DNA of 64,000 nucleotides from an uncultured Candidatus Saccharibacteria bacterium (GCA_965225085.1 CBDDBE010000003.1:1023-65022); one strand, 5' to 3'. Positions 3,650 to 61,132 are shown, numbered from the stretch's first letter. Made by a program: numbers and translations. The notes: a model not told the origin generated them from the sequence alone.

Positions 3650-3692
3650 GCAAGTGAGTTACAATACGAGTAGTAAAGATCACGGAGGTAAT

Positions 3693-4862
3693 ATGAAGTT
3701 AAAAATAGGTGCATTTGTAGCGCTCATGGCGCTGGCGGGAATTGTATTCGCGCCGCTCGCGGTCCATGCCAGCGCGATTCGCCATGGTGATCGAGTGTCG
3801 GTTGCTCAGGATGAATCGGTTGATTCGACAGTATTTTTGGCCGGCTCAACCGTTACGGTGGCTGGCGTGGTCCACGGTGATGTCTTTTGTGTAGGGCAAA
3901 ATGTAGACATTACCGGCATGGTCGAAGGTGATGTCTTTTGTGCTGGCCAGACCATGCACATTAGCGGCACCGTCCTTGGCAGTGTTCGAGTGGCTGCTCA
4001 GACGCTGACAATTACAGGGCCTATTGGCCACGGGCTGAGTGTGGCTGCTCAGAGTGCGAGTATCGGCGGTGGCGCCACGGTAGACCAAGATGCGACTATT
4101 TTCGGAAGCATGATTGATCTGGGCGGCAAAGTCGGCCGGGACGCGGTGATTGGCGGCCAAAACGTTACTATTTCTGGCCGAGTTGCCCGCGATGTGACGG
4201 CTCAGGTGCAGGATCTAACGTTGGCGAACGGAAGCCAAATCGGTGGAGCTCTTGACTACACTAGCAGCAACCAGGCAACAGTCGAGCACGGCGCTACGGT
4301 GGTGGGCGCTACGCAACGGCACGATCCACCGGCCCGCAATGAAAGGCAGAGCAATACGGGCACGGCTTCGTTCTGGAACGCAGCCTATTGGTTTGGGGCG
4401 ACGCTGATGTTTGGGCTCGCTTTGCTGCTGGTCGCGCCGCGTACATTTGTATCGACCAAGAAAGTCTTTGCCACAAAAGGCGGCTGGGCTCTTCTGGCTG
4501 GACTTGGTATGCTCATTCTAACGCCTATTGTCGCGGTGATCTTGATGATGACGGTGATCGGCCTGCCACTTGCTATTGCGTTGTTGCTGGCTTGGATCGT
4601 GGCGCTCATAGGCAGCTTTAGCTACAGCTCATATGCTGTTGGGTCATGGATTGCTGAGCGGGCAAAATGGCAGCTGAAGTGGCCGCGCCTATCGGCGTTG
4701 GCACTCGGGGTGTTAACTGTATCGGTCCTGATGCTCATACCTTTTGTCGGCGGACTGTTTGGCTTCGTGGCGTTGATAGGGGGACTAGGCGCAGTCGGTA
4801 TGGCCTTTGTGTCACACGCTAAGAGCTCGGGCACTACTACCCATAAGCACGCTAAAGCGTAA
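3693..4862 (+). CDS. bactofilin-like (polymer-forming, beta-helical repeat) domain fused to a C-terminal polytopic membrane domain
   Basis: GGAGGT SD lies before MKLKIGAFVALMALAGIVFAPLAVHASA (signal/anchor). Repeated units GDVFCVGQNVDITGMVEGDVFCAGQTMHISGTVLGSVRV.... Four or more hydrophobic helices at the C-terminus. Confidence 0.6.
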   Translation: MKLKIGAFVALMALAGIVFAPLAVHASAIRHGDRVSVAQDESVDSTVFLAGSTVTVAGVVHGDVFCVGQNVDITGMVEGDVFCAGQTMHISGTVLGSVRVAAQTLTITGPIGHGLSVAAQSASIGGGATVDQDATIFGSMIDLGGKVGRDAVIGGQNVTISGRVARDVTAQVQDLTLANGSQIGGALDYTSSNQATVEHGATVVGATQRHDPPARNERQSNTGTASFWNAAYWFGATLMFGLALLLVAPRTFVSTKKVFATKGGWALLAGLGMLILTPIVAVILMMTVIGLPLAIALLLAWIVALIGSFSYSSYAVGSWIAERAKWQLKWPRLSALALGVLTVSVLMLIPFVGGLFGFVALIGGLGAVGMAFVSHAKSSGTTTHKHAKA

Positions 4863-4880
4863 ACAACTCAAATAGACTTT

Positions 4881-4914
4881 TAAATTCACCCGCAGCTACG
4901 AGCGGGTGAATTTA
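4881..4914. terminator. bidirectional stem-loop between convergent genes
   Basis: TAAATTCACCCGC (4881-4893) / GCGGGTGAATTTA (4902-4914): perfect 13 bp stem with an 8-nt loop. Confidence 0.6.
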
Positions 4915-4935
4915 ATGACGCTGAAGCTTGGGTCA

Positions 4936-6600
4936 CTAGAAATGTTCGCGCACGTGGCCGAAGCTGTAACCCCAGTCAGCGTTGGCTTTTTTGTGAGGGT
5001 TGAAGATATGGTCTGGGTCCATGATGTCTTTAGCCTGGCGGAAATAGCCGAGGACGGTTGGGCCGTACATTTGCTCCAGCCAAGGGCCACGCACCAGGCC
5101 GTCGTTGTGCTCACCGCTTAAGCTACCTTTGTACTTGAGGATTAGCGTGTTGACTTCTTTCATCGCGGGTTCGAGCTTGGCGCGGTCGCTCGGGTCTTCG
5201 AGCCTCATGAGGGGGATGATGTGAAAATTGCCATCGCCCATATGCCCGGCGACTGTCGCAAAGAGTTTGTATTTGCGAATGATCTGCTGCAGTTGGGGTA
5301 GGAACTCCGTGAGGTGCGGCGGATTGACGACCAGGTCGTCGATGAACGGCGCGGTGTGTTTGTCTTTTACCTTTTCGCGCAGTAGTTTAAAACTTTGGCG
5401 GCGCATCAGCCAGAATTTTTCGCTGCGTCCCTCAGTCGGCGTTTCCTCGAAGCCATTGATCTCGTAGCGAGCACGGTGTTGGCCTAGTTCTCGATGGAGC
5501 GCACGGATTTTTGTACGCACTTCGTCTTCGGTGTCGCCGTTGAATTCAATCATCAGAATCAGCTTTGGGATACCGCGCAGTAGCAGAAGCCCATCGGGGA
5601 TGAGGTTGAGCAGTAGCATTATGAAACGCGCCGGGCCAAGCATCTTCAGGAACGACGGCATAAAGCGAATCGAGAGCCACAGCGTCTGGTCGTCGAAGCT
5701 TTCGAATGTCGCCGGCTTGCTTTCGAGCACCTTTGGGATGAGCTCACCCAGGTCATCCATACCACGAAGGAACAGGACGAGCAGCCCGGAATGCTTGCGG
5801 TGCGGCACTAGTTTGAAGGTAATGTCGGTGGTGAAACCCAAGGTTCCTTGTGCGCCAACGATCAGATTGCACAAATTGAATATGCCTGTTTCGCGGTCCC
5901 ATACATCCCACAGGTTGTAGCCGGTGGAGTTTTTGCTGACGTGAGGTTTGGCGGCTTTTATCTCGTCGTAGTGGGTGTCGACTAGCTGGAATATTTCGCG
6001 GTAGACCTTGCCCTCAAAGTCATTTTGGGTCATTTTCTTATCAAGGTCGGCTTTCTGGAGCGGTTTGACGATGCGCTCTATACCATCGGCAAACACAACT
6101 TTTAGCTCACTCACGAAATTTTCGGTTTTGCCAAACTCGAGTGACTTTTCGCCACCAGAGTTGTTGTTGACCATGCCGCCGATGGTACACAGGTCGCGGC
6201 TGGCTGGATAGCTGGGCATCAGCGCATCGTGTTTGAGCGTCTCGGCCTCGAAGTCACGGTAGAATACGCCGGGTTGAGCATGGCCGGTTGTGGCATCAAC
6301 ATTTTCGATGGCGGTAAAGTATTTGTTGAAGTCGACAATGATTGAGTCGTTTATAGCCCCACCGCTCATGTCTGTCCCGGCAGAGCGCGCCGTGAGCGAC
6401 AGGTCGGGATGTGTTTTCTTTTGTTCGGCTACGAGGCTGACCAGCTTTTGGACATCGGCGCTGTCCTTTGGCATGGCAACCAGGCGTGGTTTGATTTCGA
6501 ATAGTGAGGCGTCATGGCTATATAGCTCCAGCGTTTTGTCGCTGGTATCTACGTCACCGCTAAAGCCTTTCGATTTGAGGGCGTCAATAATGTCTTCCAT
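4936..6600 (-). CDS. FAD-binding oxidoreductase (GlcD / D-lactate dehydrogenase family)
   Basis: 554 aa. N-terminal FAD_binding_4-like region (ARSAGTDMSGGAINDSIIVDF, CTIGGMVNNNSGG) and a C-terminal FAD-oxidase domain (GSLSGEHNDG). Confidence 0.85.
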   Translation of the reverse strand: MEDIIDALKSKGFSGDVDTSDKTLELYSHDASLFEIKPRLVAMPKDSADVQKLVSLVAEQKKTHPDLSLTARSAGTDMSGGAINDSIIVDFNKYFTAIENVDATTGHAQPGVFYRDFEAETLKHDALMPSYPASRDLCTIGGMVNNNSGGEKSLEFGKTENFVSELKVVFADGIERIVKPLQKADLDKKMTQNDFEGKVYREIFQLVDTHYDEIKAAKPHVSKNSTGYNLWDVWDRETGIFNLCNLIVGAQGTLGFTTDITFKLVPHRKHSGLLVLFLRGMDDLGELIPKVLESKPATFESFDDQTLWLSIRFMPSFLKMLGPARFIMLLLNLIPDGLLLLRGIPKLILMIEFNGDTEDEVRTKIRALHRELGQHRARYEINGFEETPTEGRSEKFWLMRRQSFKLLREKVKDKHTAPFIDDLVVNPPHLTEFLPQLQQIIRKYKLFATVAGHMGDGNFHIIPLMRLEDPSDRAKLEPAMKEVNTLILKYKGSLSGEHNDGLVRGPWLEQMYGPTVLGYFRQAKDIMDPDHIFNPHKKANADWGYSFGHVREHF

Positions 6601-7023: not shown

Positions 7024-8136
7024 CTATTTGGCGTGGAGCGTTTCGCCCGTCGCTCCAATGGGCTGGGCAAAGCGCTTCTTAGCGAACAGGCTGTGCAGCC
7101 ACGCCAGGCCGATCAACGACGTGGTTATGCAGCCTATGACCAGGCTGGAGAGGTCGAACCACATCGCCCAGGGCAGCGTGCCGATAGCCCAGAACGTCCC
7201 ATGACCCAGGTATGGATATCTGAGGAACGCATTCGTTGCTACCAGATGCAGCGTCATCCCCCGGACAAAGAGCGCACCGATGCCCAGACCAAGCAGGAGT
7301 AGAATCAGCTTGATGCTACTCTGCACTCGGTCGATCATCGAGAGGCCGCCCATGACGCTGTCGACCGAGAAGGTCGCGTCCTGTACCTCGAGATAACAGA
7401 ACATTGCGAAGGCCAGCAAGCCGTTGAGGCCGGGGTCGCTCGGTGTTCCTCGCTGCTTGGTTGGCCGGTCAGACGTGCGGTCTTGCCGCGCGTTGAGCCA
7501 TCTGGTCAGCAGGCTGAGCGCAGTGTACAGCACGATACTGACCAACCCGGCTCCGATCACGGTGCGATACTGCTGATGCCATTTCAAACACAGCCCGATG
7601 ATCGCACCGCACGCTACTGCAAGAACGGACAAGTGCGGATGCGCACCGCCCAGTCGCTCGAACCAGCGCTCGACTGGCCCAATCCAGTAGATGGTAAGGT
7701 CCTTGCCCTCGGCGTCGGTTTCGTGGTCCTTCGCGAACAGGAACGTTGCGAAGATTTGCAGCAGATACACGCTACCAAAGACCATGACCGGCAAGTGGGC
7801 ATTTAGCAGCTGTTGGGTAAAGGCGTCGGGATGTTTGACGATGCTGGTCAGCGCGCTGCCTATGCTCTCGTGGTTGCCGATAGCAACAATCACGATCGGC
7901 ACGGCGCCCCTCACCCCAAAGACCGCTACCGCAATGCCCCACAACATGAAGCGCTTCTGCCACTTCTTGTTGAGTTTTGCGACGTAGGTGGCATTAACGC
8001 TGGCGTTGTCGAACGAAAGCGCCACCTCTAGTACTGCTAGCATAGCAACGACCATCGCGCTATGCGGCATGGCATAGGCCAAGTAGCCCAGGACGCAGAT
8101 CGCGGCAATACTGGGCCATCCGTAGTATCGCCACAT
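7024..8136 (-). CDS. DUF475 (TerC-related) integral membrane protein
   Basis: ORF 7024..8544 trimmed to MWRYYGWPSIAA. Shows LEVALSFDNASVNA and the WQKRFMLWGIAVAVFGVRGAVPIVIVA motif. Paralog of 24177..25211. Confidence 0.75.
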   Translation of the reverse strand: MWRYYGWPSIAAICVLGYLAYAMPHSAMVVAMLAVLEVALSFDNASVNATYVAKLNKKWQKRFMLWGIAVAVFGVRGAVPIVIVAIGNHESIGSALTSIVKHPDAFTQQLLNAHLPVMVFGSVYLLQIFATFLFAKDHETDAEGKDLTIYWIGPVERWFERLGGAHPHLSVLAVACGAIIGLCLKWHQQYRTVIGAGLVSIVLYTALSLLTRWLNARQDRTSDRPTKQRGTPSDPGLNGLLAFAMFCYLEVQDATFSVDSVMGGLSMIDRVQSSIKLILLLLGLGIGALFVRGMTLHLVATNAFLRYPYLGHGTFWAIGTLPWAMWFDLSSLVIGCITTSLIGLAWLHSLFAKKRFAQPIGATGETLHAK

Positions 8137-8325
8137 GGCGTTCACCCCTTTCGGATGTGATGTAAAAGAACGATCGTCGAGTCGGTTGACACGACGGAGC
8201 ATGGCAAATCCATGCAGGCTGTTATGATAACACCGTGCGGTCACCTTCGCAATTATCTGTACATAGCGACGTACTGTTCTGCCGCGTAGCTCGTGTATAA
8301 TAACTGCAAAAGGGTATATACAATT

Positions 8326-9534
8326 ATGGCAGACGGCGTACAGAAGAAGAGAGTTCTGATTTTGGGTGGAGGCTTCGGCGGTATCAAGACAGCCCTGGGG
8401 CTGAATGACGAAAGCGCGTATGATGTCACGCTGCTGTCGGACAAAACTGACTTCAAATATTATCCGGCTCTGTACCGCTCGGCGACTGGCATGAGTAGGA
8501 CGGCATCTATTATCCCGCTCGATCAGATCTTTCACGGCAAACACATTACGCTACTGCACGAGCATGCACTCAAACTAGATCGTGCGGCCAGCGTCGTCAC
8601 AACTGTATCGGGCAAAAGTATCCCTTATGACATCTTGGTCGTGGCGCTTGGCTCGGTCACGAATTATTTCGGCATCAATGGCCTGGCCGAATACAGTTAC
8701 GGTATCAAGACGATCGAAGAGGCTGAGACGCTCAAGAAACACCTGCACGAACTAATGCTCAACGAACACAAGCCCGACCTGAATTATGTCGTCGTCGGTG
8801 GTGGCCCGACGGGCATTGAACTGGTGGGGGCGTTGCCGCACTACCTGAAGTGGATTATGAAGCACCATGGTATCAAGAACCGACGCATCAACATCGAGCT
8901 GGTCGAAGCTTCGCCCAGGTTGCTTCCACGCATGCCCAAGGATTTGTCGGCTGCTGTGGAACGGCACCTGCGCAAAATGGGGGTCAAGCTGCATTTGGCG
9001 CAAAAGGTCGAGGCCGAAACTGCCGACGCGCTTATCATCAATGGCCGGCCGATCAAAAGCCATACCGTCATTTGGACCGCAGGCATGTCCAGCAACGTGT
9101 TTATTAGCGAGAATGGCTTTACGCTGGATCACGGCAAGGTAGTGGTGGATGAATTTCTGCGCGCCAAGAATGAGCAGGCCGAGAATATCTATGTGATTGG
9201 GGACAACGCCTTAACCGAATATAGCGGCATGGCCCAGACAGCCCTGCACGACGCCGCCTTCTTGGCTCGGAACTTAAGACGCCTCGCGAACGATGACGTG
9301 CCGCTGGCATACAAGCCTAAACGTCCCATATACGTGTACCCGGCCGGGGAGCGCTGGTCGGCTGTGTTATGGGGTCCAGTTCGGATCTACGGCTGGTTGG
9401 GCTGGGCGCTTCGCGAAGCAGCAGACTGGGTGGGCTACCACGACGTCGAACCCTGGTGGAAGGCGTCTGAGCTATTTATGGCCGAAGCCGAGACGGACGA
9501 GATGTGCCCAGTATGTGGAGCCAAAGAAGACTAA
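8326..9534 (+). CDS. ndh: type II NADH dehydrogenase-like FAD/NAD(P) oxidoreductase
   Basis: ORF trimmed to MADGVQKKRVLILGGGFGGI. Second dinucleotide fold VVVGGGPTGIELVG; also GDNA. Confidence 0.85.
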   Translation: MADGVQKKRVLILGGGFGGIKTALGLNDESAYDVTLLSDKTDFKYYPALYRSATGMSRTASIIPLDQIFHGKHITLLHEHALKLDRAASVVTTVSGKSIPYDILVVALGSVTNYFGINGLAEYSYGIKTIEEAETLKKHLHELMLNEHKPDLNYVVVGGGPTGIELVGALPHYLKWIMKHHGIKNRRINIELVEASPRLLPRMPKDLSAAVERHLRKMGVKLHLAQKVEAETADALIINGRPIKSHTVIWTAGMSSNVFISENGFTLDHGKVVVDEFLRAKNEQAENIYVIGDNALTEYSGMAQTALHDAAFLARNLRRLANDDVPLAYKPKRPIYVYPAGERWSAVLWGPVRIYGWLGWALREAADWVGYHDVEPWWKASELFMAEAETDEMCPVCGAKED

Positions 9535-18517: not shown

Positions 18518-18997
18518 CTATTGAACCATCGTGTCGCCGCCGGGAGTGTTGGTGGTGTCTGGGGCTGTGCTGCCACTGCCGCGGAACATTAGGCGGGGAT
18601 TGAGCGTAACGGTTGTGACCTTGGTCGTGTCTGACGGGTCTAGCGTGAGCATGACGGTGCTGCCCGTTTTAACGTCGGATGCGCTGGCAGCTGCCGTGCC
18701 ATTGGTGTAGGCCGTGCTGCTGGTAAGTGTGTAGGTTTTGTCGGTGTTGTTGAACCGCTCGGTAATGGTGATACTCGTAGCGCTGATAGCTTTGACGGTG
18801 CCAATTCCACGGTTATGCATCATGCCGCCAAAGCGCCCGCCACGGGTGCCGCTCTGAGTGATCGCTGCGCCACTGGCAGCGTTGGTTTGCCTCTGATACG
18901 CCATGCCGGTAAAGAAGCCGGCAATAGGGAGGATGATGAGCGCGGCGACAACCGCCATTTTCTTGTACATTTGCTTCTGATATTCGTGAAGTGCCAT
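18518..18997 (-). CDS. membrane-anchored/secreted Thr/Ser-rich protein (159 aa)
   Basis: ORF 18518..19126 trimmed to the ATG after the AAGGAGA SD. N-terminal anchor MAVVAALIILPIAGFF, then a beta-rich T/S-rich domain. Lies downstream of the ABC exporter. Confidence 0.65.
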   Translation of the reverse strand: MALHEYQKQMYKKMAVVAALIILPIAGFFTGMAYQRQTNAASGAAITQSGTRGGRFGGMMHNRGIGTVKAISATSITITERFNNTDKTYTLTSSTAYTNGTAAASASDVKTGSTVMLTLDPSDTTKVTTVTLNPRLMFRGSGSTAPDTTNTPGGDTMVQ

Positions 18998-19021
18998 GAG
19001 ATTCTCCTTAGTGCTTGATTT

Positions 19022-19119
19022 AGAAAGGTTGCAGGTTGGATAGTTGGAACATTTGCGTTTCCCGCAAAGCCGCTGCTTGCGGCGAGGGCCGTTTCGGCTA
19101 TCCAACCTGCAACCTTTCT
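19022..19119 (+). repeat. structured palindromic element, copy C
   Basis: Perfect 22-bp outer stem AGAAAGGTTGCAGGTTGGATAG (19022-19043) / CTATCCAACCTGCAACCTTTCT (19098-19119). P1 TTGCG-TTTCC-CGCAA at 19053-19067. P2 GCCGC-TGCTT-GCGGC at 19069-19083, followed by GAGGGCC and GTTTC. Confidence 0.8.
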
Positions 19120-19126
19120 CGTCCAT

Positions 19127-20437
19127 CTATTCGTAACGCAGTGCGTCGATCGGGTTTAGCCGGGCGGCCTTGGCGGCGGGATAGATGCCAAAGACGAGTC
19201 CGACTAGGGTCGACACCCCAACGGCCAGTATGACTGAGCTCATGCTGACCGACGGCGTAATGCCGCTGAGCACCCTGCCGAGGTTGGCAGCCGTGAGCGC
19301 CCCGACAGCGATGCCGATCAGCCCACCCGCCAGGCACAGCAGTACCGATTCGAACACGAACTGCTGCATGATGTCGCGCGTTCGGGCGCCAAGCGCCTTG
19401 CGCAGGCCAATCTCGCGGGTGCGTTCGCTGACGGCGACTAGCATGATGTTCATGATGCCGATGCCGCCAACGACCAGTGAAATGCTGGCGATACCGGCCA
19501 GAAGGGTCGTGAACACGCTGGTTGATTGCTTGACTGTGTTGAGCAAATCCTCAGGGGTGCTAACACTAAAGTCGGCGGTTTTGTCGATCTTGCCATGTAG
19601 GCTGAGCAATTTATTTGTGACGCTCGTCTTGGCGGCTTCGGTGGCGGTATCGCTGGTTGCTTTGGCGTAGATCGCGCTGAGGTTGGTGAGGCTGTAGGTA
19701 GCCTGCGCGCTGGTGAATGGGATATAGATTTGGCGATTGGCGTTGTTGAAGCCGCTCTCTTCCTTGCTGGCTAGGACGCCCACAACGGTGTAGGTGTCAT
19801 CCTCGAGCTTGATAGTCTGCCCCACGGCAGTGCCGGTGCCGAATAGGTCGCTCGCTGCTTGGCTGCCCAGGACGGCGACTTTGGCCGAGCCACTGATATC
19901 GCCGTCGGTGAAAGCCTTGCCGCTGGCCACCGTGAGGGCCTGGATGCCAAAGTACGTTGCCTCGGTGCCGCTGATTGTAAAGCGTTGTGTCTGGGCGTTG
20001 CCGCTACTGTCTTTGTCCGGCAGGGTCAGCTCACTGTTGCTACTGGTGTAGCCTGCGACGGCTGCAAGGTTCCAGCTGGCAGCGTTGTCCTTGATAGCCT
20101 TGAGGTCATCCGTAGTCAGCGTCGCCTGGACATTGCGCGGTCCTGGACCGCCACCGTCCATGCGTACGACCCGCTGTCCGCCACTACCGAGCCCGGCCGC
20201 AAACACGCCGCCTGCGTTTGCGCCACTCGGAGCCGCGCCAGACCGGATGGTTACGACATCGGTACCAAGTGAGCTAATGCGACTGGTTATGCGGTTGCTC
20301 GCGCCGTTACCGACAGCCACCAGAGCAATGACCGACGCTATGCCGATGATAATGCCAAGCATGGTCAGGAAACTGCGTCCCTTGCTGCGACCGATGGCGC
20401 GGAAGGCCTGGCCTAAGATTCGGAGTGAGCGTTTCAT
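19127..20437 (-). CDS. ABC transporter permease, MacB/FtsX family
   Basis: N-terminal TM, large periplasmic-type domain, and a C-terminal FtsX-like 3-TM bundle (REIGLRKALGARTRDI). Confidence 0.9.
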   Translation of the reverse strand: MKRSLRILGQAFRAIGRSKGRSFLTMLGIIIGIASVIALVAVGNGASNRITSRISSLGTDVVTIRSGAAPSGANAGGVFAAGLGSGGQRVVRMDGGGPGPRNVQATLTTDDLKAIKDNAASWNLAAVAGYTSSNSELTLPDKDSSGNAQTQRFTISGTEATYFGIQALTVASGKAFTDGDISGSAKVAVLGSQAASDLFGTGTAVGQTIKLEDDTYTVVGVLASKEESGFNNANRQIYIPFTSAQATYSLTNLSAIYAKATSDTATEAAKTSVTNKLLSLHGKIDKTADFSVSTPEDLLNTVKQSTSVFTTLLAGIASISLVVGGIGIMNIMLVAVSERTREIGLRKALGARTRDIMQQFVFESVLLCLAGGLIGIAVGALTAANLGRVLSGITPSVSMSSVILAVGVSTLVGLVFGIYPAAKAARLNPIDALRYE

Positions 20438-20438
20438 G

Positions 20439-21134
20439 TTATTTACTCCTCTTGTCGGCGACGATCTTGCCGTCTTTTAGGGTGATAACGCGGTCGGCGA
20501 ATGCTGCAATTTCTGGCTCGTGTGTGATCAGGATGATTGTTGCTCCCTGTTTGTTGATTTTGCGAAAGAGTCGCATTATTTCTTCGCTGCGTGCTGAGTC
20601 CAGATTGCCAGTTGGCTCGTCAGCCAGGATGAGTGAGGGGTCCATCATCAGCGCCCGTGCCACAGCTACGCGCTGGATTTGGCCACCCGACAGCTGAGCG
20701 CCGGTGTGGGTGGCACGGTCGGCTAGATCAACTTGCTTGAGGAGCTCCTCCGCTCGCTCGTACCGATTGGGCAGGTCGCCATATATAGTGGGGAGCATCA
20801 GATTCTCAAGCACTGTGGTCCGGGGCATAAGGTTGAACTGCTGAAATACAAAGCCGATCTTGCGGTTTCGAAGGTCGGCTCGAGTGTGATTCTTGAGCGT
20901 ACTGACATCTTGTCCGTCGAGCAGGTATGTGCCGTGAGTGGGCGTGTCGAGCAACCCCAGAATGTGCATCATAGTTGATTTGCCTGAGCCGCTTGGGCCC
21001 ATAATTGCGACAAAATCGCCATTTTGAATAGTTAACCGTACGTTTTGTAGGGCTATGGTCTTTTCCTCTCCTGATGTATACATCTTGCCCACATCCTTCA
21101 AGTCTATAACTGGCGGGTGTTGCGTGGTACTCAT
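20439..21134 (-). CDS. ABC transporter ATP-binding protein (MacB/LolD-like)
   Basis: GPSGSGKST, LSGGQIQRVAVARAL, ILADEPTGNLD. Confidence 0.95.
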   Translation of the reverse strand: MSTTQHPPVIDLKDVGKMYTSGEEKTIALQNVRLTIQNGDFVAIMGPSGSGKSTMMHILGLLDTPTHGTYLLDGQDVSTLKNHTRADLRNRKIGFVFQQFNLMPRTTVLENLMLPTIYGDLPNRYERAEELLKQVDLADRATHTGAQLSGGQIQRVAVARALMMDPSLILADEPTGNLDSARSEEIMRLFRKINKQGATIILITHEPEIAAFADRVITLKDGKIVADKRSK

Positions 21135-24176: not shown

Positions 24177-25211
24177 ATGAGCGCCAGAGATAGCTCGCTT
24201 GTGCGAATCTATGCTTTTTCGGGGTTGGCTAGCGTAGCGGTATTGGTATTGGCTGGCATTTGGGGTGGCATAGATGCACTATTGACCGTGCTGGTGCTAG
24301 CCGGGCTAGAGATTACTTTCAGCTTCGATAACGCCATCGTCAACGCCAAGATATTGCAGCACATGTTGGACATCTGGCAGAAGGTCTTTTTGACGTTGGG
24401 CATTGCGATAGCGGTTTTCGGTGCGCGGCTGGTGTTGCCGATTGTGTTGATTGCGGCAACGGCGGGTTTGAGCGCGACGGATGTCGTACGCCTAGCGATT
24501 GAGCGGCCGGATCAGTACGCATCATATCTCACGAGAGCACACCCGATGATTGCGTCGTTTGGTGGGATATTTTTGCTCATGATTTTTATGGAGTTCTTGA
24601 CCGATTACGGTCGCCGAGTGCATTGGCTGCGAGTTATCGAACGTCCCCTTATGAGAGTTGGGCGTCTGCGGCAGGTTCCGCCACTGGTGGCGCTTGCCGT
24701 GTTGGCCTTTACGACGTGGCTGTTGGCTGGGGATACTCGCTTTGAGGTTTTGCTGGCAGGTGTCATCGGACTGGTGACGTACGTGGCCATACGAGGCCTA
24801 GCTGAAGTGTTCGAACAAAAGGAAGAGCGGGAGCTGAAGTCATCGAAGAGTGCGCTCCTGAAGGCCGGCCTGGTTAATTTTGTGTATCTAGAACTGCTTG
24901 ACGCGAGCTTTAGCCTCGACAGTGTGATAGGCGCATTCGCTATCACAAATATGGTGCTGCTTATTGCGGCGGGTTTGGGGCTTGGCGCAGTTTGGGTGCG
25001 CTCTATGACGGTTCATATTGTACGCCGCAATACGCTAAATACGTATCGATATCTGGATCATGGCGCTCATTACGCTATTGGGGCGTTAGCTATCATGATG
25101 CTGCTGAGCATTCGGTTTGAGGTGCACGAGGCGGTTACCGGCTCGATAGGACTTGTCATTATCGGTTTGGCGTTCTTCAGTTCGTGGCGCTACAACCAGT
25201 CGCATGCTTAA
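24177..25211 (+). CDS. DUF475 (TerC-related) integral membrane protein, second paralog
   Basis: LEITFSFDNAIVNA, WQKVFLTLGIAIAVFGARLVLPIVLIA, and a second DASFSLDSVIGAF repeat. Confidence 0.75.
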   Translation: MSARDSSLVRIYAFSGLASVAVLVLAGIWGGIDALLTVLVLAGLEITFSFDNAIVNAKILQHMLDIWQKVFLTLGIAIAVFGARLVLPIVLIAATAGLSATDVVRLAIERPDQYASYLTRAHPMIASFGGIFLLMIFMEFLTDYGRRVHWLRVIERPLMRVGRLRQVPPLVALAVLAFTTWLLAGDTRFEVLLAGVIGLVTYVAIRGLAEVFEQKEERELKSSKSALLKAGLVNFVYLELLDASFSLDSVIGAFAITNMVLLIAAGLGLGAVWVRSMTVHIVRRNTLNTYRYLDHGAHYAIGALAIMMLLSIRFEVHEAVTGSIGLVIIGLAFFSSWRYNQSHA

Positions 25212-29175: not shown

Positions 29176-29197
29176 GACCGCTGGTATCTTGCCACGC

Positions 29198-29227
29198 AAA
29201 AATAGCCCAGAGTATTGGGCTATTTTT
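29198..29227 (+). terminator. intrinsic terminator
   Basis: AAAAATAGCCCA-gagtat-TGGGCTATTTTT. Confidence 0.8.
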
Positions 29228-29245
29228 GTATGCTAAGCTAAGTGC

Positions 29246-60023: not shown

Positions 60024-60569
60024 ATGCCAATGCAGGCCTGGAAGCGAATTGAACCAACCGTGTACCACAAAGTCGGTTGGCGGCGGATTACGACAAAGAC
60101 ATTCCTGCTACCTGATGGGCAGAAGCATACTTTTGACGTTATGTACCTGGACGGACAACAATTTGCCTGTATAGTCGCGCTGACGAAGGACCGCCAGGTG
60201 GTGATTGCTCGCCAATTTCGACCTGGCCCGGAGAAAGTCATGGATGATTTGCCCGGCGGATTTGTAGATAAAGGCGAGAATCCCGAAGCAGCGGCCAAGC
60301 GCGAGCTGCTGGAGGAAACAGGCTACCAGGCGGGCAACATGACCTACCTCGGCGCGTTCCACAAGGACGTGTATATGAATGCAACCTGGCATGCGTTCCT
60401 CGCTACGGACTGCGTAAAAGTGACCGATGATCTACAGCTCGACAGTGGCGAGCAGGTCGAAGTCGACTTGATATCGATAGATCGGCTCATTGAAAATGCT
60501 ACACACGACCGCATGCAAGACCATGCCGCTGTACTGATGGCGTATGATACGTTGAAAAAGGAGCAATAA
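60024..60569 (+). CDS. Nudix hydrolase (ADP-ribose pyrophosphatase-like)
   Basis: Nudix box LPGGFVDKGENPEAAAKRELLEETGY. Confidence 0.8.
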   Translation: MPMQAWKRIEPTVYHKVGWRRITTKTFLLPDGQKHTFDVMYLDGQQFACIVALTKDRQVVIARQFRPGPEKVMDDLPGGFVDKGENPEAAAKRELLEETGYQAGNMTYLGAFHKDVYMNATWHAFLATDCVKVTDDLQLDSGEQVEVDLISIDRLIENATHDRMQDHAAVLMAYDTLKKEQ

Positions 60570-61132
60570 TGCCAGTACCGCACCTCATTGTTATTCATGG
60601 CATGCCTGCGACGGGCAAAACAACGCTCGCTAGGCAACTTGCCAAGGACCTGGGTCTGCCACAAATCGGTAAAGACGACATCAAGGAACTGCTCTTTGAC
60701 CGTATGGGCGTAGGTGACCGGGAATGGTCGAGGACGCTTGGTATCGCTACGAGTGAAATGCTATACCCGTTGCTTATTACCTTGCTGAAAACAGGCCAAA
60801 GCCTTATTGTGGAAAGTGCGTTTGACCATAAGTTTACTGTGCAGCGCTTAGCCGAAATCGTGCGTGACACACAGGCCTCTTGCATAGAAATTTACTGCAC
60901 CGTCGATGGACACGAGCGTCGCCGACGTTTTATCGAACGAAACGAAAGTGGCGCCAGGCACCCTGGCCATGTTGACGCCACCAATTACGACGCTTCGAGC
61001 GAAGAAACCGACAAACGCACTTATGCACCGCTGGATATTGGAAAGTTGATAAAAATTGATACGCTAGAGTTTGGAAAGCCCGAATACGCAAAACTGCTGA
61101 CACGGCTTCACCGCGAGCTTGCAGACAACTAA
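60569..61132 (+). CDS. P-loop kinase/ATPase (AAA_33-like)
   Basis: Walker A GMPATGKTTLA at the N-terminus; 187 aa; substrate unknown. Confidence 0.6.
   Translation: MPVPHLIVIHGMPATGKTTLARQLAKDLGLPQIGKDDIKELLFDRMGVGDREWSRTLGIATSEMLYPLLITLLKTGQSLIVESAFDHKFTVQRLAEIVRDTQASCIEIYCTVDGHERRRRFIERNESGARHPGHVDATNYDASSEETDKRTYAPLDIGKLIKIDTLEFGKPEYAKLLTRLHRELADN

Follow-up and report, generated by a model that had tools for sequence, protein, structure and literature searches.

Like the hairpin family reported here, the Correia (NEMIS) elements of Neisseria and the ERIC (IRU) elements of enterobacteria are dispersed and intergenic, sometimes lie between cistrons, measure ~100-150 nt, are insertion-polymorphic and form long hairpins on co-transcribed mRNA. 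RNase III or RNase E cleaves them there, and they alter mRNA stability. REP/BIME elements and REPINs, which RAYT (HUH Y1) transposases mobilise, resemble the family in being short extragenic palindromes. They sit between cistrons or at the 3' ends of genes, face either way and frequently form adjacent inverted pairs; they also stabilise the mRNA upstream of them and are recognised in the form of single-strand hairpins. The duplexes of REP/BIME, ERIC and Correia elements act as RNase III substrates or as barriers to 3' exonucleases. Integron attC sites, which are read as folded single strands, are also imperfect palindromes with a conserved structure and much free sequence, and the ITRs of AAV, a structural analogy only, are also T-shaped, with two small hairpins on a long stem. 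In TIGR-Tas arrays, reported from CPR bacteria and phages, a unit with short conserved motifs likewise lies between variable palindromic stems (PMC12045711). The present family, found in three copies (A, B and C) in the 64-kb stretch of DNA analysed here (the window), differs from the Correia, ERIC, REP and attC elements in what it conserves: the stem is unique to each copy and the apex is kept.

Copy C lies between two cistrons of an ABC transporter operon (Table 1), and is present in the operon mRNA as its reverse complement, with its core antisense to the operon. The orthologue of the downstream cistron in the related locus L013 has a weak DUF5666 match. The initial annotation of the window had described copy C as the third copy of a repeated structured element, inside the operon and antisense to its genes; its coordinates for the element, the permease stop codon and the Shine-Dalgarno (SD) sequence proved exact to the base, the core is indeed common to copies A and B, and the outer stem is, as it had stated, a perfect 22-bp pair unrelated to the stems of A and B.

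Table 1. Features of the copy C locus, of the other copies in the window and of the divergent T2 copies (window coordinates unless a locus is named).
Feature	Position	Strand	Remarks
ABC ATPase gene, first in the operon	20439..21134	-	Pfam PF00005
MacB/FtsX-type ABC permease gene, cistron upstream of copy C	19127..20437	-	PF12704 + PF02687
Permease stop codon, cta = TAG	19127..19129	-	7-nt gap to copy C (19120-19126)
Block absent from nearest relative, ~118 nt	19009..19126		between permease stop and SD
Copy C, whole element, 98 nt	19022..19119	core +	80.4 bits, E 2.8e-21, model R1
P1 outer 5' arm, AGAAAGGTTGCAGGTTGGATAG	19022..19043		copy-specific; perfect pairing with 19098-19119
Inner P1 5' side, TTGGAAC	19044..19050	+	partner GTTTCGG 19091-19097
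P2 hairpin, TTGCG-TTTCC-CGCAA	19053..19067	+	100% paired in family, compensatory changes
P3 hairpin, GCCGC-TGCTT-GCGGC	19069..19083	+	100% paired in family
Conserved 3' junction GAGGGCC and inner P1 3' side GTTTCGG	19084..19097	+
P1 outer 3' arm, CTATCCAACCTGCAACCTTTCT	19098..19119
SD of downstream cistron, tctcctt = AAGGAGA	19003..19009		12-nt gap to copy C (19010-19021)
ATG of downstream cistron	18997-18995	-
Cistron downstream of copy C	18518..18997	-	159 aa, N-terminal hydrophobic segment
Copy A	13125..13229	core +	82.8 bits
Copy B	13239..13335	core -	94 bits
T2 copy	L027:11811-11934	-
T2 copy	L027:~12566-12668	+
T2 copy	L013:715-806	+
T2 remnant	L014:~500-545

Copy C contains the longest local inverted repeat of the window, followed by B and then A. 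An inverted-repeat finder returned arms of 29 nt (19022-19050 and 19091-19119), 90% complementary and 40 nt apart, and the stem comprises the perfect 22-bp outer part, or 29 bp if G-U pairs on the + strand are counted. The predicted fold reaches -63.7 kcal/mol on the + strand (z = -10.1) and -56.6 kcal/mol on the - strand (z = -8.6), and on neither strand did any of 200 shuffled sequences fold as well. The + strand folds better because three pairs of the inner P1 that are G-U on + become A-C on -, so that this segment pairs on the + strand only.

At least 14 copies of the element were found, 13 complete and one cut by a contig end: three in the window, two in one Candidatus Saccharibacteria MAG (L001, L002) and nine on JGI soil metagenome contigs (L003-L011). 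The window itself probably also belongs to this lineage, judging from the elements that it shares with the MAG, from its relatives in the same samples and from a dense layout typical of small genomes. All 14 follow one plan, in which a ~60-nt module sits on copy-specific arms; the elements are 93-124 nt long and the copy-specific stem spans 16-28 bp (mean ~22 bp). Folded as single-stranded DNA or RNA, the module forms a three-way junction of an inner 5-bp helix and the 5-bp hairpins P2 and P3, whose loops are conserved, and a small purine-rich internal loop, often with tandem G-A/A-G, separates it from the arms. The inner helix ends in AAC...GTT, which is invariant across the family, and is followed by AU and then by P2 (consensus YKGCG-UUYYC-CGCMR), the most conserved part of the family. 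The P2-P3 linker is usually GACUGA, has another sequence in copy A and is missing in copy C; P3 (consensus GSCGC-UGYUU-GCGSC) follows, in compensatory variants GCCGC/GCGGC, GGCGC/GCGCC and GCCAC/GTGGC, and then GARGGCC. In a 13-sequence alignment (A1), 90.8% of cells are paired and 18 pairs are changed on both sides; none of 500 shuffles reached the A1 pairing values, controls with slid partners gave only 38-58%, and RNAalifold recovered P1, P2 and P3 independently. A possible pseudoknot between the P2 loop and the GAGGG of the 3' junction is accompanied by one compensatory change.

A search with covariance model R1 also found a divergent subfamily, T2, which keeps P2 and GAGCTGYTTGCGA and has lost P3 pairing (Table 1). 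The T2 copies of L013 and L014 occupy an orthologous site adjoining rmuC and share 92% identity over 36 nt, compared with ~73% for the genes of these two loci, which could mean purifying selection for a host function. The model gave one further weak match in the window (13975-14057, +; 21 bits, E about 0.001-0.003), which lies inside a dehydrogenase gene and contains CCGAGGGCC; we take it as chance because it has no flanking inverted repeat. Two long hairpins without the T1/T2 core were noted elsewhere: one in L011 (1517-1620; 17-bp stem, 70-nt loop) and one in L013 (18698-18772; 21-bp stem, 33-nt loop).

Conservation stops at the edge of the module. Mean identity is 88% in the core, a value raised in part by ascertainment, since a sequence pattern served to retrieve most copies and biases the census, a lower bound, to near-consensus cores; in the arms it is 29%, the random level. 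Identity gives way to randomness abruptly, 5-8 nt outside AAC...GTT. Copies L002, L005 and L006, for example, have cores identical over 54-63 nt and unrelated arms, and in the window A, B and C share a ~55-nt module and nothing else (for a 37-nt piece of this core, 0 chance matches are expected). No two copies share arms, contrary to the expectation for a simple copy-and-paste element. Comparison of arms with one another in both orientations gave no similarity beyond chance (the best-looking case, A against C with 15/22, is within the null), no source of the arms was found within +-6 kb of each copy beyond shuffled controls, and the arms are absent at empty sites. Arm 17-mers treated as 'spacers' matched viral contigs only at chance level, and the matches do not extend.

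The arms do share a composition. Taken together, the 5' arms hold 143 C against 84 G, and in 14 of 17 copies a C-rich 5' arm faces a G-rich 3' arm; copy C, whose 5' arm is G-rich, is the strongest exception, and L027b is also reversed. The polarity of a palindrome is the same on both strands, and a hand count of seven ordinary intergenic hairpins of the window gave the polarity of the arms, which points to hairpin function as the level at which the bias was selected or arose. Mismatches within the arms, tallied by hand as G-U against A-C, number ~12 to 7 and give no clear strand signal.

We compared the operon with those of five relatives, fetched via the permease protein (L033, L012, L013, L015 and L014). 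In the first four, only 12-16 nt separate the permease stop from the next ATG, compared with 129 nt in the window, and in these relatives the space holds just the SD and no hairpin. The nearest relative, L033 (84% aa), reads ...CGTTACGAATAA-AGGAGAATCATC-ATGGCACTTCACGAATAT, and the window, in operon orientation, reads ...CGTTACGAATAG-(ATGGACG + 98-nt element + AAATCAAGCACTA)-AGGAGAATCTC-ATGGCACTTCACGAATAT, with nearly identical flanks. Because the empty sites have no hairpin, the entire ~118 nt, arms included, represents an insertion in the window lineage. Judged from these alignments, a member of a dispersed hairpin family inserted here, as copy C, in this lineage alone. The initial annotation had proposed this comparison of orthologous operons, which returned an empty site in these four relatives, and had suggested that a mobile ~55-nt unit inserts into the loops of pre-existing hairpins. 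The sharp edges of the module agree with such a unit, but the pre-existing hairpin does not hold at site C, where four relatives have none and both arms are new.

The junctions of site C allow a TA duplication (AATA/G...CACTA/AGG, against AATAAAGG in L033) and the L006 copy is flanked by ATTC on both sides; no consistent target-site duplication was found in the flanks of the other copies. In the fifth relative, L014, the same junction between the permease stop and the next gene carries an unrelated imperfect palindrome of ~290 nt (L014:11312-11605; DNA fold -74.6 kcal/mol, z -6.9), so the junction has been repeatedly invaded by hairpin DNA.

Filled and empty sites recur elsewhere. The 594-aa neighbour of the L004 copy is LepA, with named relatives in Saccharibacteria/Saccharimonadales. 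The spacer after lepA holds an element with an antisense core in L004, elements with sense cores in L003 and L025, the three having unrelated arms, and a T2 copy in L027/L028; it is empty and without a hairpin in L026, L029 and L030-32. Strain-level alleles were sought downstream of lepA, and that clade is simply empty. Copies A and B, which are 9 nt apart with mutually inverted cores, lie in an intergenic region of 320 nt that measures 85 nt in L012, where element and hairpin are absent. Copy B is 84-93% identical to copies from other samples, 73% to A and 71% to C, which argues against simple homogenisation within the genome. A and B lie between divergent genes, a short way upstream of a promoter: directly after copy B comes TTATTTT and then TTGCCA-17-TATGAT (13336-13369), the only sigma-70-like promoter of the region, which would serve a glycerol-3-phosphate-dehydrogenase-like gene at 13409.

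Copies also cluster: the three of the window fall within 6 kb, its remaining 58 kb hold none even when filters are switched off, and two in L027 fall within 0.8 kb. Decayed remnants occur in L013, L014 and L003. Beside the full copy of L003, at a distance of 12 nt, is an inverted core fragment (5403-5430; CAACAT and the P2 hairpin, 21 nt), and the surrounding 250 nt contain further imperfect inverted repeats, which suggests local rearrangement. With respect to the nearest gene, ~4-5 cores are sense and ~6 antisense, copy C and L007 being antisense within co-directional gene pairs, and most copies lie 7-50 nt after a stop codon. Several contigs (L001, L005, L008 and L025) end inside an element, as expected of a repeat; the elements thus break metagenome assemblies.

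The elements lie in ordinary core chromosome, among genes such as PheST, GAPDH, transketolase, UvrB and GatA. A Pfam scan of the 40 larger window ORFs found no transposase, reverse transcriptase, HUH-type, integrase or Nop-domain gene, the gene tables of related loci list no transposase, reverse transcriptase or HUH-type protein, and no tRNA genes are present. The window also contains a PIF1-like helicase (1164-2690), a 402-aa ORF without Pfam match (3654-4862) that includes two tandem 51-nt direct repeats, 75% identical (3864-3965), two TerC/DUF475 paralogues (7024-8544, -; 24177-25211, +) and a zeta-toxin/AAA_33-like kinase adjoining a NUDIX gene (60024-61132). The core pattern has no match in viral contigs; a relaxed pattern gave eight, rejected as chance since all lie in coding sequence without flanking repeats, and phage and plasmid collections yielded only 25-nt chance matches to the core.

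On the operon mRNA, the reverse complement of copy C folds into the same 22-bp stem, here with three small apical hairpins, so that the duplex of more than 22 bp expected by the initial annotation does form in the predicted fold; in operon context, the SD of the downstream cistron is predicted to be largely unpaired. The uninterrupted 22-bp duplex on this strand reaches the length of an RNase III substrate (~20 bp). The short stop-to-start distance of the relatives suggests coupling, and the insertion would remove it. A hairpin of about -57 kcal/mol would also block 3' exonucleases, give a double-strand-specific cleavage site, or both, and either effect would shift the ratio of upstream to downstream cistron expression. 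By analogy with the Correia, ERIC and REP/BIME elements, the hairpin probably acts as processing or stability punctuation on the operon mRNA, with an altered ratio of permease to downstream protein as the most likely consequence. The roles that the initial annotation named for it, an RNase III-type processing site, an attenuator or a stabiliser, are plausible through the same analogy.

We therefore favour the reading, with a probability of roughly 0.55, that copy C is a lineage-specific insertion of a non-autonomous mobile hairpin family, MITE/REP-like, that affects the mRNA by analogy with such elements. We infer mobilisation from filled and empty sites, clustering, mixed orientation, subfamilies and decay; most likely, a trans-acting enzyme that copies or mobilises the element would recognise it by the conserved junction. 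Counting against this reading are the transposase, reverse transcriptase and HUH-type genes that the window and the related gene tables lack, the missing conserved terminal inverted repeats and clear target-site duplication, the arms that no two copies have in common, and the well-preserved L013/L014 remnant. The most credible alternative, though an unlikely one, is a structured RNA selected by the host, in which the junction binds a protein or is otherwise functional and the duplex serves as a processing stem, for example for RNase III, or in which the whole is a cis-acting stability element of 3'-UTRs and intercistronic regions. The conserved loops and junction with covarying stems, the narrow ranges of stem and element length, the position of most copies shortly after a stop codon, the polarity that the arms share with the seven hand-tallied window hairpins, the well-preserved L013/L014 remnant and the possible pseudoknot would all suit a host RNA. 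Against it, the cores are sense about as often as antisense, copy C and L007 are antisense within co-directional pairs, and the arm mismatches give no clear strand signal; A and B, moreover, are upstream of a promoter between divergent genes, some copies are decaying, and relatives differ in having the element at all. A further proposal, raised by the initial annotation as an antisense RNA, is an independent small-RNA gene on the + strand, whose transcript would regulate the ABC operon by pairing with the mRNA. Although copy C has its core 'sense' on + and folds better there, no sigma-70-like promoter precedes it and no terminator-like site follows it on that strand, which leaves the proposal without support; the insertion is only ~118 nt long, the G-U bias of copy A is opposite, and orientation across the family is unrelated to gene direction, all of which makes this very improbable. 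We give a similarly slim chance to an intrinsic (factor-independent) terminator or attenuator within the operon. A very stable hairpin right after a stop codon, as at the 3' ends of genes next to other copies, would fit, but a terminator is a G+C-rich hairpin followed by a U-tract, and the scan found no T-run after the stem of copy C on either strand, nor after most other copies, nor consistent T-runs in the flanks of 15 copies. Copy C is thus not a canonical intrinsic terminator; the classical A-tract/hairpin/T-tract terminators of the window (29185-29240, 4880-4915) look different, and the downstream cistron is conserved with its strong SD kept. That the element is part of a longer coding region has a negligible probability. 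The ORFs 18518..19126 and 10632..13157, which the initial annotation had seen to read through copies C and A, both exist, but the orthologous proteins start at the Met of 18997 and 13088, so the extensions are spurious, a by-product that these elements generate. The orthologues compared lack the sequence entirely, in agreement with the non-coding status originally proposed; conservation follows base pairing and not codons, and six-frame core peptides had no match in a protein database.

The origin of the arms separates the remaining proposals. A ~60-nt module with its own short terminal inverted repeat (ACAAC...GTTGT) could insert into the apical loop of a long hairpin that was already in place, for instance a terminator, which would account for the sharp boundaries, for arms that are unrelated even on identical cores, for their ordinary-hairpin polarity and for copies in either orientation after stop codons. 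Plain hairpins with stems of 16-20 bp do exist, ~8 in 300 kb of these genomes, so that a two-step route, hairpin first and core afterwards, is possible in general; a plain hairpin between convergent genes in L033 (5262-5306) has a 16-bp perfect stem (~20 bp in the RNA fold). We nevertheless regard this route as distinctly improbable for the family, since the empty sites of the four operon relatives, of L012 at A/B and of the lepA spacers have no hairpin, no orthologous pair of a plain hairpin and a hairpin with core was found, the arms (~22 bp mean) exceed the usual 12-15-bp hairpins of the window, and adjacent inverted pairs (A/B; L003) would be hard to obtain. A more speculative idea, quite unlikely in our estimate, is that only the ~60-nt T-shaped junction is inherited and the ~22-bp arms are made afresh at each insertion, which would make this a new kind of mobile unit in CPR bacteria. 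Fold-back (hairpin-primed) synthesis on a short tail, either new or captured, is one way in which fresh arms could arise, and this would explain perfectly paired, unrelated arms on identical cores as well as the extra non-palindromic junction bases, the adjacent inverted pairs and both apex orientations. In a variant, the long duplex may be a processing stem that frees a small, conserved junction RNA from whichever host transcript contains it. Two adjacent hairpins in L026 (20460-20527 and 20545-20612) have unrelated stems of 26 bp and 24 bp and loops of 16-20 nt that are mutual reverse complements (GACCCGTTCTGTGCGA / CCTCGCACAAGACGGGTCGT), the same design as A/B in the window with a different apex family; this second family hints that an arm-making process is general in these genomes.

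For the favoured reading, a mobile hairpin family inserted at site C, the consequences extend beyond one operon. The genomes of Saccharibacteria and other CPR bacteria are tiny and densely packed, and gain and loss between relatives indicate that even 12-nt gaps inside operons can be invaded, an event that can rewire operon expression.

The family is apparently undescribed: a literature search found no description of it, and it is best placed as a MITE/REP-like dispersed hairpin repeat with the opposite polarity of conservation. Rfam 15, whose families include hammerhead, twister, twister-sister, pistol, hatchet, HDV-like and Y RNAs and riboswitches, gave 0 matches in the window at gathering thresholds, and at E<=10 only long-hairpin miRNA models far below threshold. 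By eye, hammerhead CUGANGA/GAAA and box C/D motifs are absent, and the CUGA-bearing J2/3 linker is itself missing in A and C; resemblances to parS, DUS, attC and CRISPR repeats are short coincidences. The solitary copies form no TIGR stem-loop array: TIGR-Tas loci are tandem arrays beside a Nop-domain gene, and within each unit variable spacers of 8-12 nt separate box C from box D (PMC12045711), whereas the present copies have a conserved interior that lacks box C, no RUGAUGA occurs on either strand, and no Tas gene occurs among the 40 larger window ORFs (Pfam) or in the gene tables of related loci. In attC sites, the R/L boxes at the stem base are conserved and the apex varies, the reverse of the present element, and the sites stand in cassette arrays beside an integrase, in contrast to solitary copies with no integrase; the element is not an attC site in this sense. 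AAV ITRs also have an asymmetric apex that can face either way between its flanks ('flip/flop'), as here in L003/L025 against L004, but their stem is conserved, with Rep-binding and nicking sites, they form the ends of a linear genome, and there is no sequence similarity. REP elements conserve a stem with a GTAG end within a genome, and not the loop, and go with a RAYT gene; the present stems are copy-specific, the gene tables hold no RAYT-like/Y1 transposase and the copy number is apparently low (3 in 64 kb). Like MITEs, the family is dispersed and multicopy with filled and empty sites, but its terminal inverted repeats, at 29% arm identity, are not conserved; in Correia and ERIC elements it is these repeats, the stem, that are conserved while the centre varies, and Correia elements duplicate TA where no clear duplication is seen here. 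A conserved three-way-junction apex on a stem of free sequence thus follows a logic unlike that of MITEs, REPs or attC sites, and this inversion points to a structure-specific enzyme not yet known, or to an unrecognised RNA module.
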